IMG/VR virus record: IMGVR_UViG_3300020420_000671
DNA from: a virus
Taxonomy: Duplodnaviria; Caudoviricetes
Length of the DNA stretch: 64,000 bases
Direction: 5' to 3' (one strand)
The translations under genes and the position numbers were made by a program. The notes beneath the pieces were generated by a model. It saw nothing but the letters and a program-made list of their open reading frames with translations. It did no database searches and was not told the origin of the DNA. This document shows, one piece after another, positions 1,963 through 47,723 of the stretch; positions within the stretch are counted from its first letter, which is position 1; every line of letters starts with the position of its first letter.

Positions 1963-2043
1963 TTTGCCCTCTTTCTGTTTCCTTATTATGTTTATACTAT
2001 AGCACAGGTTTGGACCCGTGTCAACCCCTTTTTTTAAAAAACA

Positions 2044-2229
2044 TTAACACACATAATAATGTGTTAACGTAATATCCTCCATGCTTAAATTTAATTGCTT
2101 ACTTAAATTATACTTTGTCATAAATTGCTGTCCCATAGCAAAACGTTTAGTTTTACTTTGCACAACGCATAAGTCCTGCACTTCAGCTCCGTTTACATTG
2201 TAAGTAAAGTGCACTTGTAACTGTTTCAT
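2044..2229 (-). CDS. hypothetical protein, proline-free, UC/CC-free mRNA
   Basis: ATG 2229 behind GAGGGC; promoter TTGCGT-17-TACTAT. Confidence 0.75.
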   Translation of the reverse strand: MKQLQVHFTYNVNGAEVQDLCVVQSKTKRFAMGQQFMTKYNLSKQLNLSMEDITLTHYYVC

Positions 2230-2298
2230 TTTGTAGCCCTCGTTGTTGTATTGTATTTGCATAGTAGCACAAAAAATGCTACTACGCAACCATTTTTT

Positions 2299-2502
2299 TT
2301 ATAAATGTTTAATTTTTGTGTTAGTGCTTTCAAAAACGTTTACACATTTTGCACTTGTTAAATCATAAACTAAATGTGTAGTGTATAATTTATTTTGTAA
2401 CATATACGCATTGCAATCTTGTATGTTTTCAAAAAACTGTAAATGTGTTTTATCATTTACATCTGCATCATTGTGTAGTAAATATTTGTACTGCATTTGC
2501 AT
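2299..2502 (-). CDS. hypothetical protein, proline-free, UC/CC-free mRNA
   Basis: ATG 2502 behind GAGGGC; promoter TTGACT at 2564. Confidence 0.75.
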   Translation of the reverse strand: MQMQYKYLLHNDADVNDKTHLQFFENIQDCNAYMLQNKLYTTHLVYDLTSAKCVNVFESTNTKIKHL

Positions 2503-2599
2503 TTTGCCCTCATTTTTTATTTTTATTATGTTTATAATATAACACAAAAAATCCAAAAAGTCAAGCAAAAAATTAATTTGTTTTTTTGGAAATTAATGC

Positions 2600-2628
2600 T
2601 TTACAAAACGGAAAATGTGTGTTATAGT
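2600..2628 (+). promoter_or_regulatory. sigma70-type early promoter, divergent from the 2564 promoter
   Basis: TTTACA-17-TATAGT upstream of GGAGGG RBS and ORF 2670. Confidence 0.75.
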
Positions 2629-2669
2629 GCATACATAATAAAACTTTAACATACTACGGAGGGTGCAGT

Positions 2670-3017
2670 ATGCAAAACTTTAAAACTATTACTAAAAAAA
2701 CAACTACTAAAGTGGAAAGTGTGCACGTGGATGTGTTGTACGCAGTAATTGAAAATTGCTACAACAGTTTACAAGTAGTGGAAGCAGACGGCACTAGTGC
2801 TAGTTACTTCCTAAATAGTGCTAACATTTTTGCACAACTACAGGAAGTATATGCAGAAAACTGCCATAATAACTATGTTAGTTTAGCAAGTGTTATGGAA
2901 GTTTTTGCTAACAACATAACTTACTACGACGAAGAATACGGCTTGTATGAAAGTGTAGTTGAAAATACTGCACTTGCTAAAGTTAAGTTGCAGGATTATG
3001 CTTGTTTAAGTAACTAA
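2670..3017 (+). CDS. hypothetical protein, proline-free, nearly UC/CC-free mRNA
   Basis: 115-aa ORF with GGAGGG RBS; the only plus-strand gene found in the early region. Confidence 0.8.
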   Translation: MQNFKTITKKTTTKVESVHVDVLYAVIENCYNSLQVVEADGTSASYFLNSANIFAQLQEVYAENCHNNYVSLASVMEVFANNITYYDEEYGLYESVVENTALAKVKLQDYACLSN

Positions 3018-3033
3018 CAAAAACAAAAAACAA

Positions 3034-3063
3034 AAAGACAGCAAAAGAACGCTGTCTTTTTTT
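3034..3063 (+). terminator. intrinsic, probably bidirectional terminator
   Basis: AAAGACAGC/GCTGTCTTT hairpin with T-tract between convergent genes. Confidence 0.75.
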
Positions 3064-3067
3064 GTGG

Positions 3068-3313
3068 CTACTTGCTACGGTGACAGCCGGATCCTCTGTT
3101 GTTGGTATCCAGGGCGTCGTAAGCACAGTCGTACATGTTCGCCACGATGCCATCTTTGGACAGATGCCTAGTAGCGTTAATGATCTTGATAGTGTCTTTA
3201 CCTGACAGGCCACCTACTACACCGGGGCCTCCACATCCGCTTAACATAATACAGAAGCAGATAACAACAAGGATAAACATCATTCCTGGTGGTGGGGTAC
3301 GAGGAGCAAACAT
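3068..3313 (-). CDS. putative lipoprotein
   Basis: Hydrophobic stretch followed by LSGC lipobox; ATG abuts upstream stop. Confidence 0.55.
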   Translation of the reverse strand: MFAPRTPPPGMMFILVVICFCIMLSGCGGPGVVGGLSGKDTIKIINATRHLSKDGIVANMYDCAYDALDTNNRGSGCHRSK

Positions 3314-3520
3314 TTAAGAAGCTACCTCAATCTGGTACCCGTAACTCCAATGTCCGTTGTCCATGTCAAACGTACATCTGTCCTTGTCCGCTACGAATAT
3401 CTTGTCTACGCCGATGCCATACTTCTCACCGTTCTGGCATAGCTCAATACCGGTCACCTTGGCCTCACCCCATCGTGTGTCAACCCTAGTACCGATCTTA
3501 ATGAATTTTCTGTCTGCCAT
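3314..3520 (-). CDS. hypothetical protein
   Basis: 68-aa ORF with GAGGG RBS and promoter at 3581. Confidence 0.75.
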   Translation of the reverse strand: MADRKFIKIGTRVDTRWGEAKVTGIELCQNGEKYGIGVDKIFVADKDRCTFDMDNGHWSYGYQIEVAS

Positions 3521-3698
3521 ATTACCCTCTTTGTTTGTTAATTTATACTTATATTATAACACCCTAATCTGCTCTTGTCAACCCCTCTTTTGCCAATTGC
3601 GATCTCTGTGGACCTGTTTCCGGAGGCCTTACAACGGGGCCTCGCATGTTGTATGCTTTATTATAGCACACAACACACAAGTTGTCAACCGTTTTATA

Positions 3699-4142
3699 CT
3701 ACGCCGCTACAGCCTCCTCTACGCTTAACTCCTCTATGTCCACGCTTAAATAACTTTCGTCATCTCCGTCGTGTCCCTGCATTCCCTGTTCGCTACCGCT
3801 ACAAGTTAAAAGTCCCCCTGTTAGTTCCTCTAACTTGTCTCCTATCATTTTGTCTAATGCTCCCGTGTAAGCAAGTCCGTTAGCATCCGTTCCGCCCTTG
3901 TACTTTAATTGTACAGTTCCTTCTCCACACGCAACTTCCTCGTCGTCGTATATGTTCCCATACACAAAGTGCAAGTACAGTTCGTCATTTGTAATTTCGC
4001 AATCTCCCCAGTAGCCGCCTTCGTAACTACTAGCCCAACCTGTTCCCAAGTTTATTACTACGCTGTAAAAATTAGCATCCTGCTTCTCTATAGTAACAGC
4101 AGTCCCTAGCTTCTCTTGTAGTTTATTTAAAAGTGTAAACAT
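3699..4142 (-). CDS. acidic hypothetical protein, proline-free, UC/CC-free mRNA
   Basis: ATG 4142 behind GAGGGC; promoter at 4208. Confidence 0.8.
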   Translation of the reverse strand: MFTLLNKLQEKLGTAVTIEKQDANFYSVVINLGTGWASSYEGGYWGDCEITNDELYLHFVYGNIYDDEEVACGEGTVQLKYKGGTDANGLAYTGALDKMIGDKLEELTGGLLTCSGSEQGMQGHDGDDESYLSVDIEELSVEEAVAA

Positions 4143-4217
4143 ATTTGCCCTCATGTTTGTTGTTGTTTAGTATAGTTACACTATAGCACAAGTATGCTAT
4201 AGTGTCAAGTGTTTTTT

Positions 4218-4694
4218 TTAATAACTTTCAAAAATCCGTAAACTTAAACTTAACCAGTGTTCTACTTGTTCGTCTACGTCCTTGTTAAGTAAGTTGTCGT
4301 TCCACTTTTCGTAACAAGCACATTCAAACTGTTCCGTAATACTATCCCTGTATTCCGTGTCGTAACTTTTAAGTGCCATGCCTGCATCTTCCAGTGTAAA
4401 AGTCCACTCCGCATGTGTTTCGCCTCGTTGCCAATCACCGTCGTGTTCCTTGTGTTTGCCGTACAACATATCCAAGTGTCCTAGCACTTCTCTCGCATCA
4501 CACATCCTAACAAAGCCGTCGCCTGCACGTCTGCTTTCTGTGTTCATGTTTGTTAAGCCGTCTAGCACACCCGCCATAAAGTCTATAACAAAGTCCTTTT
4601 CTTGTTGTGTAAAGCGTTGCATGTCCTCCACTTTGCTTGTGTCTGTTACAAGTACGTCCCACATGCTGTTTATTTTGCTGTAATCTACTTTCAT
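4218..4694 (-). CDS. acidic hypothetical protein, proline-free, UC/CC-free mRNA
   Basis: ATG 4694 behind GAGGGC; promoter at 4754. Confidence 0.8.
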   Translation of the reverse strand: MKVDYSKINSMWDVLVTDTSKVEDMQRFTQQEKDFVIDFMAGVLDGLTNMNTESRRAGDGFVRMCDAREVLGHLDMLYGKHKEHDGDWQRGETHAEWTFTLEDAGMALKSYDTEYRDSITEQFECACYEKWNDNLLNKDVDEQVEHWLSLSLRIFESY

Positions 4695-4757
4695 ATTTGC
4701 CCTCGCTGTTTTTAAGTTATAATGCATACTAGCACCGTTTTACCAAAATGTCAAGTA

Positions 4758-4895
4758 TTATTTTACAAAATATGTAAAATAATCCTCCATGTGTTCCGCA
4801 ATGTCGTCTGCGTTCTGCAAGTCGCCGCTAGCCTCCATCTGCTCGTATGCTCTGTTTAAAAAGTAAAGTGTAATCTTGTTAAGTAATTTCTGCAA
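4758..4895 (-). CDS. 45-aa hypothetical protein (MQKLLNKITLYFLNRAYEQMEASGDLQNADDIAEHMEDYFTYFVK), not in ORF track
   Basis: TTG start behind GGAGGGC RBS and own promoter at 4955; fills the cassette exactly. Confidence 0.65.
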   Translation of the reverse strand: MQKLLNKITLYFLNRAYEQMEASGDLQNADDIAEHMEDYFTYFVK

Positions 4896-4958
4896 TGTGC
4901 CCTCCTATTGCTTAATTGTTATATGCATATTAACACCGTTTTACCAAAATGTCAACCG

Positions 4959-5144
4959 TTAATTTTCAAAATTGCTATTAAAAATATGTTCCAGTGTTTC
5001 CTGCTCGTCATCATCCAAGTATGTAAAGTCGTCACACACCTTCGTCTCACCCGTGTCCGTGTTAGTAATCTCCAGCCTACAGCTCACGTTGCCGTTGCCC
5101 CATGTTGTAGCCTTCTCGCTTGCCGCCAATTTATAAGTGTACAT
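4959..5144 (-). CDS. hypothetical protein, proline-free, UC/CC-free mRNA
   Basis: ATG 5144 behind GAGGGC; promoter at 5204. Confidence 0.75.
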   Translation of the reverse strand: MYTYKLAASEKATTWGNGNVSCRLEITNTDTGETKVCDDFTYLDDDEQETLEHIFNSNFEN

Positions 5145-5237
5145 ATTGCCCTCTATGTTTTTTAAGTTATAATGCATATTACTACACAACACGCAGTCTG
5201 TCAAGCAAAAAATTCCAAAATAATAATAAAAAACAGG

Positions 5238-5266
5238 TTGACAAATGTGGCAAGAGGTGGTATTAT
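5238..5266 (+). promoter_or_regulatory. sigma70-type promoter firing into the non-coding region
   Basis: TTGACA-17-TATTAT; no downstream ORF. Confidence 0.7.
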
Positions 5267-6040
5267 AATAGTATAACTTGCGTAAGAGGGCAACACTGAG
5301 ACAGGTGTAGAGGGCGAGAAAAACGTAAAAGGGCTACAGGCTGGCCGAATCCTGACTAGATTTCCGCCCAAAAATCTCCAACAAAAACAATGACTTAACT
5401 GGACGAACAGAAGAACACATTCCGCACCCTCCCCGCCAAAACCGTGTTAAAAAAGCCACACCATTTCGCTCCACTAATCCAAAACAATTCCGGACCATCA
5501 CTCCGTCAAATTTCCAACGATTTCCGTCCAAAAAGCACAACGAAATCAAACACATAAAGGAGCTAGTTGAATCAATACATAAGCTCCTAGTGACCCAACG
5601 CCTTAGTTATCTGCATGCACACATAGAGTGACCCAGCTGTTATACTGTAGTGAATCCCCACTTCGAATCTGGAAAGCTGTTAAAGAGGGGCGAGCCAACG
5701 AAGAACGCTCTACGGGAGGCCCCTCAGTAGGACCAGATTAACGGCCCCGAAGGGGCCTCGTGACCACCGCAGATCAGCCTTGAAAATGGTTCAAACCACG
5801 GTGGTGACAGGGGTCTGTAGTGGTGGGTGGTGTTGCGAAAATGCCACACTCTATACGAAAACCAAAAGATCTGTAGCCAAAAAAGAAAAGGTCGAGGCAG
5901 GTGACGAGAGGCATAGTTCAAATACTCTGACCCTTTTGAACACCGTAAGACCCTACCGTGAATATACCGTTCAAACCGTAGGGGCTCATCTATCTAGAGA
6001 CCTTACAGCGGGGCCTATGCTTTATAATGATCTCCTCTAC
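5267..6040. other. long non-coding region with short repeats (possible genome terminus, packaging or origin region)
   Basis: No credible ORF; TTCCG and GGGGCCT repeats, hairpins and strong local strand skew; function is inference only. Confidence 0.45.
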
Positions 6041-6041
6041 A

Positions 6042-6128
6042 TGGTACGAGCAGTGAGACTCGAACTCACACGACCTTTCAGTCTACGGATTTTAAGTCCG
6101 TTGCGTCTACCAATTCCGCCATGCTCGC
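6042..6128 (-). tRNA. tRNA-Leu(UAA)
   Basis: Cloverleaf with ACGGA/TCCGT anticodon stem, loop CTTAAAA, long variable arm, A73 and CCA. Confidence 0.95.
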
Positions 6129-6146
6129 CATGTAAACGAACGCCTC

Positions 6147-6374
6147 TTAACCATCAGAAACGTCCGACCAACTCCTTTGCAACGGGGCCTTTGCCTTTGC
6201 TATTCTATCCACTATTAACTGATAGACATTTACGTTAGGAGTGTCAAGAGGCCAACTCAGGTCAACCGTGTCACTACCGTTCGCTCCGTCCTCTTCGAGG
6301 CTGTAGGATCTACCGCTACCGCTCTCCGAGCTATTAAAATCTATCGTTCCGCTGTCGCGGCTATTGTTATTCAT
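6147..6374 (-). CDS. hypothetical Ser/Gly/Asp-rich protein
   Basis: 75-aa ORF coupled to upstream ORF by ATGA overlap. Confidence 0.5.
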   Translation of the reverse strand: MNNNSRDSGTIDFNSSESGSGRSYSLEEDGANGSDTVDLSWPLDTPNVNVYQLIVDRIAKAKAPLQRSWSDVSDG

Positions 6375-6466
6375 CCTGTTATCCCATACACAATCGCATT
6401 CAGTATCACAGTGACTCCTGCCGCTATCAGCATTATCAATATCAGTGTCTGCCCTTCCGTGGGCAT
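6371..6466 (-). CDS. 31-aa single-TM peptide (MPTEGQTLILIMLIAAGVTVILNAIVYGITG)
   Basis: Manually found; fills gap with ATGA overlap to next ORF. Confidence 0.5.
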   Translation of the reverse strand: MPTEGQTLILIMLIAAGVTVILNAIVYGITG

Positions 6467-6473
6467 CTTAGGG

Positions 6474-6806
6474 TCATTCTCCATTGTCATCCTCCGTGTT
6501 ATCATTTGATATTACTCTGAGAGTCTTTCTCAGCTGATCCTGTGTTAGGGTCTTTCTGTCCTGTGGTTTGAACTTGATCTTAACGATCTTGTTGCCGTCC
6601 TGTTCTTCCGTTTCGTCTATCTCGATCTCAACTTCTGATCTTTCAACTTCGAATCTTTGAGCCAGTTCGTCTATGTCTCGCTGGAGATCCTCATAGGTTT
6701 CGTCATCCATCTGTAGATCAGCATATCGCTGAGCCAGATTCAACACGGTCTCAAATAGGGTCTGTGTCTCCGGATCCAGGGGTCCATATGTGATTTTCTC
6801 TGCCAA
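6474..6806 (-). CDS. acidic hypothetical protein
   Basis: 110-aa ORF, TTG start behind AAGGAG. Confidence 0.7.
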   Translation of the reverse strand: MAEKITYGPLDPETQTLFETVLNLAQRYADLQMDDETYEDLQRDIDELAQRFEVERSEVEIEIDETEEQDGNKIVKIKFKPQDRKTLTQDQLRKTLRVISNDNTEDDNGE

Positions 6807-16299: not shown

Positions 16300-16545
16300 T
16301 TAATTTTCGTTTGTCAAGTGTTTTTGGAGATGTTCTTGTAAATTATTGTCTGTACCTAACCTTTTGTTAAGGTTTTGGCATATTCTAGCCGCGAGAGCCA
16401 TAGTGGATACCTTAGCCAAAATCTGGGCATACCAGGTATCGACTATAAGAAACTTACCAATGTCATCGTTGAGTAATTGGTACCTCATAAAAGTATTTAC
16501 CTGGTATATAACAGCGGGGCCTGAGTCATAAATATTATTGTCCAA
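16300..16545 (-). CDS. hypothetical protein (start uncertain, possibly 16488)
   Basis: ORF track. Confidence 0.45.
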   Translation of the reverse strand: MDNNIYDSGPAVIYQVNTFMRYQLLNDDIGKFLIVDTWYAQILAKVSTMALAARICQNLNKRLGTDNNLQEHLQKHLTNEN

Positions 16546-46834: not shown

Positions 46835-47203
46835 ATGGCGGAAGCCATGTTGTTATTCATGTTGGTTATAAAACATGCCCTAGCTGATCTGGTACTACAG
46901 AGCAGACTTACTTCTGGAGACAAAAGCAATCTAAAGAGTTGGAAAGGTTACATACACGCAGGAGACCACGGCCTTCTTACGTTCGTTGTTCTCTTGTTCT
47001 TTACTACCTTTGAAAATTCTGTAATCATAGGCATGTTGGATTACGTGCTTCATTTCCTTATAGACTATATCAAAACTGTATTAGTAAGACGTTTTGGTGT
47101 AGTACAGAATAGCCGAACATTTTGGATTGTACAAGGTGTTGATCAAATAGCACATTATTCTTGTTATTTTCTTTACGTTCTTCTCTTGACAAATCTATTA
47201 TAA
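46835..47203 (+). CDS. DUF3307 family membrane protein
   Basis: KHALADLVLQ...HFLIDYIK...DQIAH. Confidence 0.8.
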   Translation: MAEAMLLFMLVIKHALADLVLQSRLTSGDKSNLKSWKGYIHAGDHGLLTFVVLLFFTTFENSVIIGMLDYVLHFLIDYIKTVLVRRFGVVQNSRTFWIVQGVDQIAHYSCYFLYVLLLTNLL

Positions 47204-47216
47204 GATGCTATAAATA
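47186..47216 (+). promoter_or_regulatory. overlapping sigma70 (TTGACA-17-TATAAA) and late (TATAAATA) promoter for tmRNA
   Basis: Both consensus elements visible. Confidence 0.7.
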
Positions 47217-47220
47217 ATAC

Positions 47221-47283
47221 TACAACGTTGAAGCAATTCAAACGCTGGACAGGACCTGGGGGCAGTACCCAGCAGGTCCACCA
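47221..47283 (+). ncRNA. ssrA: two-piece tmRNA, acceptor piece
   Basis: T-arm CTGGG-GGCAGTA-CCCAG (alphaproteobacterial-type T-loop), 3' acceptor strand CAGGTCC-A-CCA; 5' end approximate. Confidence 0.85.
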
Positions 47284-47296
47284 TAAGGACATTGCT

Positions 47297-47485
47297 ATGG
47301 AAGTCATTTGGCATATTCTACTTACGGTTTGTTTAGGTTCGACCTGCCTAGAGCAAGACGTACAAAGGTTTGAGTCCAAGGTAGAATGTTACAAAGTATT
47401 GAAATACTATGAAACAACACCAGCAGATGGTCGTTGGGACACAGTAGAATATATTTGTAAGCCAGTTGGCTCAGTGTCTTTATGA
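47297..47485 (+). CDS. 62-aa hypothetical protein inside the tmRNA intervening segment
   Basis: AAGGA RBS, MEVIWHILLTVCLGSTC..., four Cys; stop just before the coding piece. Confidence 0.65.
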   Translation: MEVIWHILLTVCLGSTCLEQDVQRFESKVECYKVLKYYETTPADGRWDTVEYICKPVGSVSL

Positions 47486-47486
47486 T

Positions 47487-47706
47487 GGGCCTGAAATAGG
47501 ATCGACTGACGGATTAGTAGAAGAGTGGAGTTGTCCGGATGTAAGCTCGGTTAACGCGAACAAACGTTATAAATGCAAACGATAATGCATCAAACGTATT
47601 TTCTTTCGTAGATTTTTCTAACGCGAGAAAGTACGTGAATGAGGATTTCGCCTTAGCGGCTTAATCGCTCGGGGTTGGCAACTTACCTAGCAACAGAAAA
47701 GTTGCT
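47487..47706 (+). ncRNA. ssrA: two-piece tmRNA, coding piece (tag ANDNASNVFSFVDFSNARKYVNEDFALAA)
   Basis: 5' GGGCCTG pairs with CAGGTCC giving G3:U70; AAATAGGATCGAC D-region; TAAAT-GCA resume codon at 47575, stop at 47664. Confidence 0.9.
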
Positions 47707-47723
47707 TTTTTATGGGAGCTAGT

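Follow-up and report, generated by a model that had tools for sequence, protein, structure and literature searches.

A near-absolute sense-strand ban on TC and CC follows gene orientation in a subclass of predicted early-gene cassettes of an uncultured marine phage

At a pair of divergent promoters in an uncultured giant marine phage, the DNA strand that lacks two particular dinucleotides changes over, and this raises the question of whether such an exclusion belongs to a strand, to a position or to the genes themselves, and of what could be reading it. The window analyzed here, a stretch of 64,000 nucleotides, is part of this phage and contains genes for ribonucleotide reductase, haem and PRPP, along with tRNAs and a tmRNA. 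The tmRNA is permuted and of the alphaproteobacterial type (47182-47708, plus strand; RF01849, 91.5 bits), which is a useful host clue and makes the alphaproteobacteria the likely host class. The phage family is abundant in seawater, and the stretch was detected in the sequencing runs of 12 studies. The first 9 kb of the window form an array of small genes, every one of them preceded by a near-consensus sigma-70 promoter and by a GAGGG ribosome-binding site; the exclusion is found in this array.

We use YC for 5'-TC or 5'-CC on the sense strand, the complement of which on the template strand is GA or GG (GR). A subclass of small cassettes of predicted early genes bears an almost absolute ban on TC and CC in the sense strand. 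In the 64-kb window, plus-strand runs of at least 150 nt without GA or GG occur only at 2014-2588 (575 nt, block A) and 3639-5236 (1598 nt, block C), both made up of minus-strand cassettes, and the longest plus-strand runs without TC or CC, 2562-2809 and 2865-3055, bracket the only exceptions in the YC-poor plus-strand block B (2562-3055). From the blocks' own base composition 29.8 hits would be expected in block A, 29.6 in block B and 95.4 in block C; the observed numbers are 0, 3 and 0 (Poisson P of 1e-13, 7e-10 and 4e-42, respectively). For 14 control dinucleotide pairs, the longest free runs in the same window are 52-157 nt. Our literature searches found no published description of this ban.

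The ban follows each gene's orientation and changes DNA strand at the divergent promoters (2536-2628), a switch that acts as an internal control. On the minus strand, block A begins with a sigma-70-type promoter (2564-2536, TTGACT-17-TATATT) with a YC-free spacer, continues with two small genes encoding 67 amino acids (2299-2502) and 61 amino acids (2044-2229), and ends in a terminator-like hairpin with a T run that is itself YC-free (2041-2070). Each of the two genes has a GAGGG Shine-Dalgarno sequence, contains no TC or CC, encodes no proline and belongs to no known family. In the other direction, a second sigma-70-type promoter (2600-2628, TTTACA-17-TATAGT), its spacer also free of YC, precedes a gene of 115 amino acids (2670-3017) from a very large marine family of 430 or more proteins, which has no proline and encodes serine by AGY only; the sequence between the promoters (2562-2588) is free of both YC and GR. 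The exceptions in block B are all in this gene and comprise TTC-CTA at 2808-2811 and TGC-CAT at 2853-2855, the TCC of the former being paired in a predicted local RNA stem (ACUUCCU/AGGAAGU, 2806-2849). The block closes with a bidirectional terminator hairpin (3032-3061), whose 3' arm holds the first TC after block B, at 3055. Block C, again on the minus strand, contains the cassettes 4959-5144, 4758-4895, 4218-4694 and 3699-4142 with a promoter each, and the first YCs after it lie in a conserved AGGCCCCGTTG hairpin element (3615-3642, minus strand) about 15 nt behind a promoter at 3688-3660.

Cassettes of the same promoter type that lie next to these blocks served as internal negative controls. 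The minus-strand genes 1476-1673 and 1747-1962 contain 8 and 13 sense-strand YCs, and 3068-3313 and 3314-3520, directly downstream of block C on the same strand, contain 30 and 9, all of which is normal content. The initial annotation had described a lack of plus-strand GA and GG across 2015-2587, back-to-back promoters at 2559-2628, one TC and two CC in the plus-strand gene, and neighbors at 1282-1962 and 3068-3520 that stand outside the rule; each of these descriptions agrees with the runs, promoters and exact counts given above.

In a YC-free cassette, a single short ORF stands behind a consensus sigma-70 promoter and a GAGGG ribosome-binding site, and the ban reaches from about 60 nt upstream of the predicted transcription start to the terminator. 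It applies to all three phases of the coding sequence and to codon junctions, as well as to 5' leaders, promoter spacers and most of the terminators. The spacers contain no YC in all 7 YC-free cassettes of the window, compared to a mean of 2.9 in 9 normal cassettes. None of the seven proteins encoded contains proline and all take serine from AGY codons only; written with normal-class codon usage, the same proteins would be expected to carry 7-25 YCs per gene, compared to the 0 to 3 found in the cassettes. C itself is not avoided, as TAC, CAC, AAC, GAC, AGC and GGC are in free use, and AC and GC are enriched in the YC-free blocks (O/E 1.78 and 1.49), which together indicate that reading takes place at the level of the dinucleotide and is not a general avoidance of C. 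Two simpler origins were rejected: a cause at the level of codons or tRNAs, because codon junctions, untranslated regions and promoters also obey the ban, and a purely mutational one, because the ORFs are intact, the neighbors are undepleted and compensation is present.

We surveyed about 20 zones of more than 10 metagenomic lineages, among them inverted arrangements of the same gene families. The homologue zones in the fetched contigs (L001-L011, L017-L022, L037, L039 and the IMG/VR records G1 and G2) are YC-free over 0.57 to 4 kb, and metagenomic homologues are numerous for the three larger families. Without exception the sense strand of the gene itself carries the ban, both in the 40 genes tabulated and in further ones in L037 and L039, and homologues with 55-90% identity keep it in more than 10 lineages whether they are co-directional, convergent or divergent to their neighbors. 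Members of the 2670-3017 family lack YC where they run in the same direction as the 4218-4694 homologue (L004, L020, L037) and also where they lie on the strand opposite to it (the window, L017, G1, G2). Homologues of 2299-2502 are YC-free in L037 and L039 and that of 2044-2229 in L039, where the former is inverted relative to the latter and the exclusion flips along with it; the strand flip at a divergent pair recurs in G1. Co-directional, opposite-strand and inverted cases thus all comply with the expectation that homologues keep the exclusion wherever they are placed. The initial annotation had worded this as a rule that follows the direction of transcription, and this wording stands for gene orientation, as inverted homologues keep the sense-strand ban, while transcription itself is only the likely reason for the orientation rule.

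The comparison with relatives also bears on how the ban is maintained. YC content per gene is bimodal among the relatives, at either 0% or 3-13%, and cassettes that are normal in the window mostly have normal homologues in the relatives as well. Sequences of the 4218-4694 family from four lineages diverge at 122-193 of about 470 aligned nucleotide positions (26-42%). If substitutions fell at random, about 20% of them would give rise to a YC, yet none is present in any of the four. Purifying selection holds the ban in place across these lineages. All full-length members of this family, down to 46% identity, are without proline, the sole exception being P0024, which matches only 67% of the query. 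As for the exceptions in 2670-3017, TTC-CTA is common to the window and its nearest lineage (L017) only and TGC-CAT is confined to the window, and both sites are without YC in six other lineages, a distribution which marks all three leftover YCs as derived, in keeping with the earlier idea that they are recent substitutions.

The ban is nevertheless not tied to particular proteins. The 1476-1673 family is normal in the window and YC-free in L020 and L037, the L037 member of the 2670 family has relaxed to 5 YCs, and among distant relatives of 3699-4142 the state varies between YC-free and normal. One of these relatives (L012, 468-893) has YC almost only at five prolines, all of them T-CCG, and is an intermediate between the normal and the YC-free state. 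Gain and loss within families indicate that the ban belongs to the expression unit and not to the protein. The suggestion that the exclusion marks a gene subclass is therefore correct in that the window's cassettes split into two classes, but the state is gained and lost and is no fixed property of a family.

Such an expression unit appears to be mobile. Cassette order and orientation vary among lineages, and RNA-library contigs of two studies join promoter to promoter, at 4957->5207 and 2550->4749, with either the precise loss of the 4959-5144 cassette or the linkage of the block A promoter to block C; in related contigs such joints run from -35 to -35. These joints show that cassettes are shuffled at promoter modules among strains. 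Metatranscriptome contigs cover both cassette classes and carry no information on start, end, strand or level. The promoters of YC-free cassettes in L002, L004, L020, G1 and G2 mostly combine the -35 hexamer TTGCAT with TGn-TACATT; TTGCAT contains no YC or GR on either strand, and the normal cassettes use TTGACA.

The products of the YC-free genes are small and mostly, not always, acidic. None of the window's YC-free proteins could be placed in a family with Pfam or PHROGs. AlphaFold models of 3699-4142 and 4218-4694 reached pLDDT values of 89 and 84, and with these models the fold search matched nothing, as the best Foldseek E-value was 0.05 and the best VIA Z 4.7-5.3, which is the range of noise; no match was found in the ESM Atlas. 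When cultured phages were searched at DNA and protein level with the block and the proteins it encodes, nothing useful came up, and no cultured model was found.

Several further sequence signals occur in the window. TGCA is present 71 times in the window compared to 271 expected (O/E 0.26; GCGC 0.33, AGCT 0.62), and 27 of the 71 fall within the 2.64 kb of YC-free blocks (2014-3055 and 3639-5236), which amounts to 10 per kb compared to 0.7 per kb elsewhere; the contrast is the same, though weaker, in related loci. The YC-free blocks are exempt from the driver of TGCA avoidance. A conserved motif, AGGCCCCGYTG(T/C)AAGG, is repeated along the early region's sense strand, with 6 matches compared to 0.9 expected, minus-strand copies at 3632-3642, 3220-3230, 6006-6016, 6180-6190 and 16512-16522 and many more in L004, L017, L020, L023 and L034. 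Frequently it either follows a conserved promoter by about 15 nt where a YC-free block ends or lies next to tRNA-Leu, and in many cases it is contained in a hairpin; no Rfam family matches it, and it could be a processing, antitermination (nut-like) or protein-binding site. An Rfam scan of 3500-6500 found no known RNA apart from a tRNA. Divergent from block C, a strong plus-strand promoter (5238-5266) leads into a stretch without a convincing ORF (5238-5800), which is 73% identical to L017 over about 800 nt, fairly rich in YC (15%) and carries four TTCCG repeats; this stretch may be a non-coding RNA.

The YCs that remain in the YC-free zones give an indication of what kind of nucleic acid is read. 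They lie in the 3' arms of terminators (window 3055, L002, L004, L017) and in the recurrent hairpin element, and the TCC of 2670-3017 falls within a predicted perfect 8-bp stem, both arms of which changed together in the clade of the window and L017. Across seven zones, the median predicted probability of being unpaired is 0.21 for leftover YC compared to 0.46 for RC (one-sided Mann-Whitney P of 1.3e-4, adjacent sites not being independent). This tendency of leftover YCs towards predicted RNA stems suggests a reader that is specific for single strands. In L020 (7926-8179), YCs are present in the promoter spacer and absent from the -10 element onward. In three small genes (L004 5714-5956, and 19381-19623 and 19878-20129 in G2, L034/L035) the sense strand has no TC, CC, GA or GG, where about 15 GR would be expected in each, and the products are without Asp, Glu, Gly and Pro; here the ban acts on both strands. 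These doubly free genes and the YC-free promoter spacers speak against a purely RNA-level reading. Shuffling promoter modules that are homologous and mostly read through may explain the spacers, though not the doubly free genes.

Taken as a whole, the ban would keep these genes out of reach of a factor recognizing pyrimidine-C in sense-polarity single-stranded nucleic acid, and among the candidates for this reader we rank the termination factor Rho first. This is a tentative assignment that falls somewhat short of probable, and our argument is at its weakest in preferring Rho to another YC reader. Alphaproteobacteria possess Rho. Each subunit of its primary binding site binds one UC or CC of the nascent RNA, so that a transcript without YC would not load Rho and could be made to full length even with ribosomes trailing the polymerase loosely. 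Loose coupling of this kind is perhaps common in the first minutes of infecting a slow-growing marine alphaproteobacterium, and ordinary early cassettes with the same promoters would still need coupling or a phage antiterminator. On nascent RNA, Rho recognizes up to six CC or UC dinucleotides, and in Bacillus its avoidance by means of sense-strand composition has been shown experimentally (PMC13323073). A sense strand depleted of Rho ligands in step with gene orientation is what we find in 40 or more genes. A graded dependence on YC density, as expected from cooperative loading, is not what we find, as the distribution is bimodal.

Further points count against Rho, the main one being quantitative. 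Cooperative binding to several YCs within about 80 nt should spare a lone YC, yet isolated unpaired YCs occur at about 1 per several kb, a handful in about 20 kb of YC-free sequence, which is far rarer than a cooperative reader should tolerate. The loss of every proline is a high price for dodging a degenerate signal, the YC-free promoter spacers, untranscribed from their own promoter, need read-through or module shuffling, and Rho offers no explanation for the genes that are YC-free on both strands or for the protection of only some of the cassettes with identical promoters.

It is therefore necessary to consider other readers. The ban could be a stealth code against an undiscovered single-strand-specific enzyme acting on pyrimidine-C, be it a nuclease or a deaminase, of host defence or injected by the phage, with the cassettes as counter-defence first responders and the doubly free genes the most exposed of them; we hold this to be possible, if on the unlikely side. 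Set at the level of RNA, the transcripts would be proof against a single-strand-specific endoribonuclease cutting UC and CC, which might belong to the host, as an abortive-infection or collateral RNase, or be carried in by the phage for host shutoff, and the YC-free genes would be those first responders that need translation while it is active. As one cut kills an mRNA, the near-absolute ban and the sacrifice of proline fit, its sharpness fitting better than with Rho, and so do the leftover YCs, which in prediction are preferentially base-paired or within terminator arms, the end of the ban soon past the last stop codon though transcription continues, and the small, mostly acidic products without known family or fold, which are like many anti-defence proteins. 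However, no candidate for such an RNase was found within the window, some products are not acidic, and the YC-free promoter spacers and doubly free genes would be left over; we know of no bacterial or phage RNase with plain YC specificity, and consider RNase evasion unlikely. An attack on the displaced sense DNA strand would accommodate the promoter DNA, and the doubly free genes as well if both strands were exposed. An APOBEC-like single-strand DNA deaminase of TC and CC, or a C-specific single-strand nuclease, would hit the non-template strand exposed by very strong early transcription, and genes that need their integrity would carry no target. TC and CC together are the APOBEC-type target set, hairpins would shield DNA too, and AID/APOBEC enzymes expressed in E. 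coli attack in a transcription-dependent manner biased to the non-template strand. Yet neighbors with the same promoter, partly in the same read-through units, are undepleted, the promoter spacer from -35 to -12 is YC-free although unmelted, and no anti-phage single-strand DNA deaminase with such a preference came up in our literature search. Nor is TC and CC loss accompanied here by a matching gain of TT and CT without compensation, as in an APOBEC footprint: in the YC-free blocks the O/E is 1.07 for CT and 1.38 for TT, and RC dinucleotides rise from 11.8% to 14.2%, which along with the AGY serines indicates recoding by selection and not the footprint of decay. We regard this mechanism as quite unlikely.

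Two alternatives remain. With a DpdA-type modification, the strand free of GA and GG would be a template without modified guanine, kept for the first genes and the unmodified host polymerase; such a DNA-level mechanism would naturally take in promoters and permit doubly free genes. To our knowledge, neither 7-deazaguanine nor a glucosylated base is known to stop RNA polymerase. The banned template-strand words GA and GG nearly coincide with published DpdA motifs, the enzyme of phage iggy replacing G in 5'-GA and that of phage CAjan in GA and GGC (PMC10484667, PMC7544227). Against this, most early genes with the same promoters are rich in template-strand GR, the sense strand, including the GA in the -35 element TTGACA, would still be modified, and a duplex-acting mechanism gives no reason for leftover YCs to lie in RNA stems. 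On these grounds we find the DpdA explanation improbable; a search for TGT in three related IMG/VR fragments, which are 9-29% complete, found none. A one-strand YC ban also does away with all palindromes having a GA/TC or GG/CC step, among them GATC, GGCC, CCGG and TCGA, and so might be a blanket avoidance of palindromic restriction sites in which the sense strand is picked only because Pro can be given up at less cost than Asp, Glu and Gly. Coupling to orientation would then need no transcription and the inclusion of promoters would be explained, and the early-entering DNA of T5 is indeed free of restriction sites. But no set of sites comes close to the breadth of the ban, 155 other palindromic tetramers are present in the blocks compared to about 180 expected, and TGCA is abundant there though the rest of the genome avoids it four-fold. 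The doubly free genes would moreover pay a cost that this model does not require, and the pairing of leftover YCs would be left over, so that palindrome avoidance seems to us barely credible.

A complete ban kept by selection is an unusually clean signal, pointing to a dinucleotide-reading factor that decides gene expression at the start of infection. If Rho is the reader, the cassettes would be natural Rho-proof transcripts, by which phages beat the barrier to foreign genes through recoding, and would provide a simple design rule for insulated expression. If it is not, an unknown nuclease, deaminase or modification-dependent process would be implied, and the cassettes would flag the genes that the phage most needs to protect.

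Several known systems resemble this arrangement in part. ACA-less mRNAs survive MazF, and here too a short motif is absent from the whole transcript, untranslated parts included, so that a single-hit enzyme would be evaded; the motif here, however, is a degenerate dinucleotide without a known matching nuclease. APOBEC3 footprints in viral genomes involve the depletion of the same two dinucleotides and a strand asymmetry, but they are partial and genome-wide, whereas the bacteriophage ban described here is complete, specific to a class of genes, and maintained by selection that has recoded the genes. With DpdA systems the likeness is that the complement of the banned words nearly equals the modification motifs of other phages; the difference is that no link from such modification to transcription or to strand-specific motif avoidance has been described. 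The immediate-early and delayed-early genes of T4 would resemble the proposed split between YC-free and ordinary cassettes. The Rho-driven purine bias of Bacillus, described under runaway transcription as a code that acts as a barrier for foreign and phage genes (PMC13323073, Nat Microbiol 2026), shares with our cassettes an effect that is tied to orientation and a sense strand depleted of exactly UC and CC, the ligands of Rho. That bias is graded, statistical and genome-wide, whereas the phage ban is near-absolute and limited to a subclass of cassettes, costs all prolines, includes promoter DNA and adjoins unconstrained genes with the same promoters. In the PeSL promoter-terminator cassettes of T4-type phages, which shuffle as modules (PMC2839356, PMC4122927), we recognize the same arrays of small ORFans, the same early sigma-70 promoter for each gene and the same shuffling at promoter sequences, and the small ORFs, own early sigma-70 promoters and recombination at promoter modules that define PeSL are all found in our array; the PeSL papers cover shuffling and no dinucleotide ban (PMC2839356, PMC4122927). 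The compositional logic of the cassettes is closest to the published Rho-driven purine bias, and their architecture matches that of the PeSL modules.
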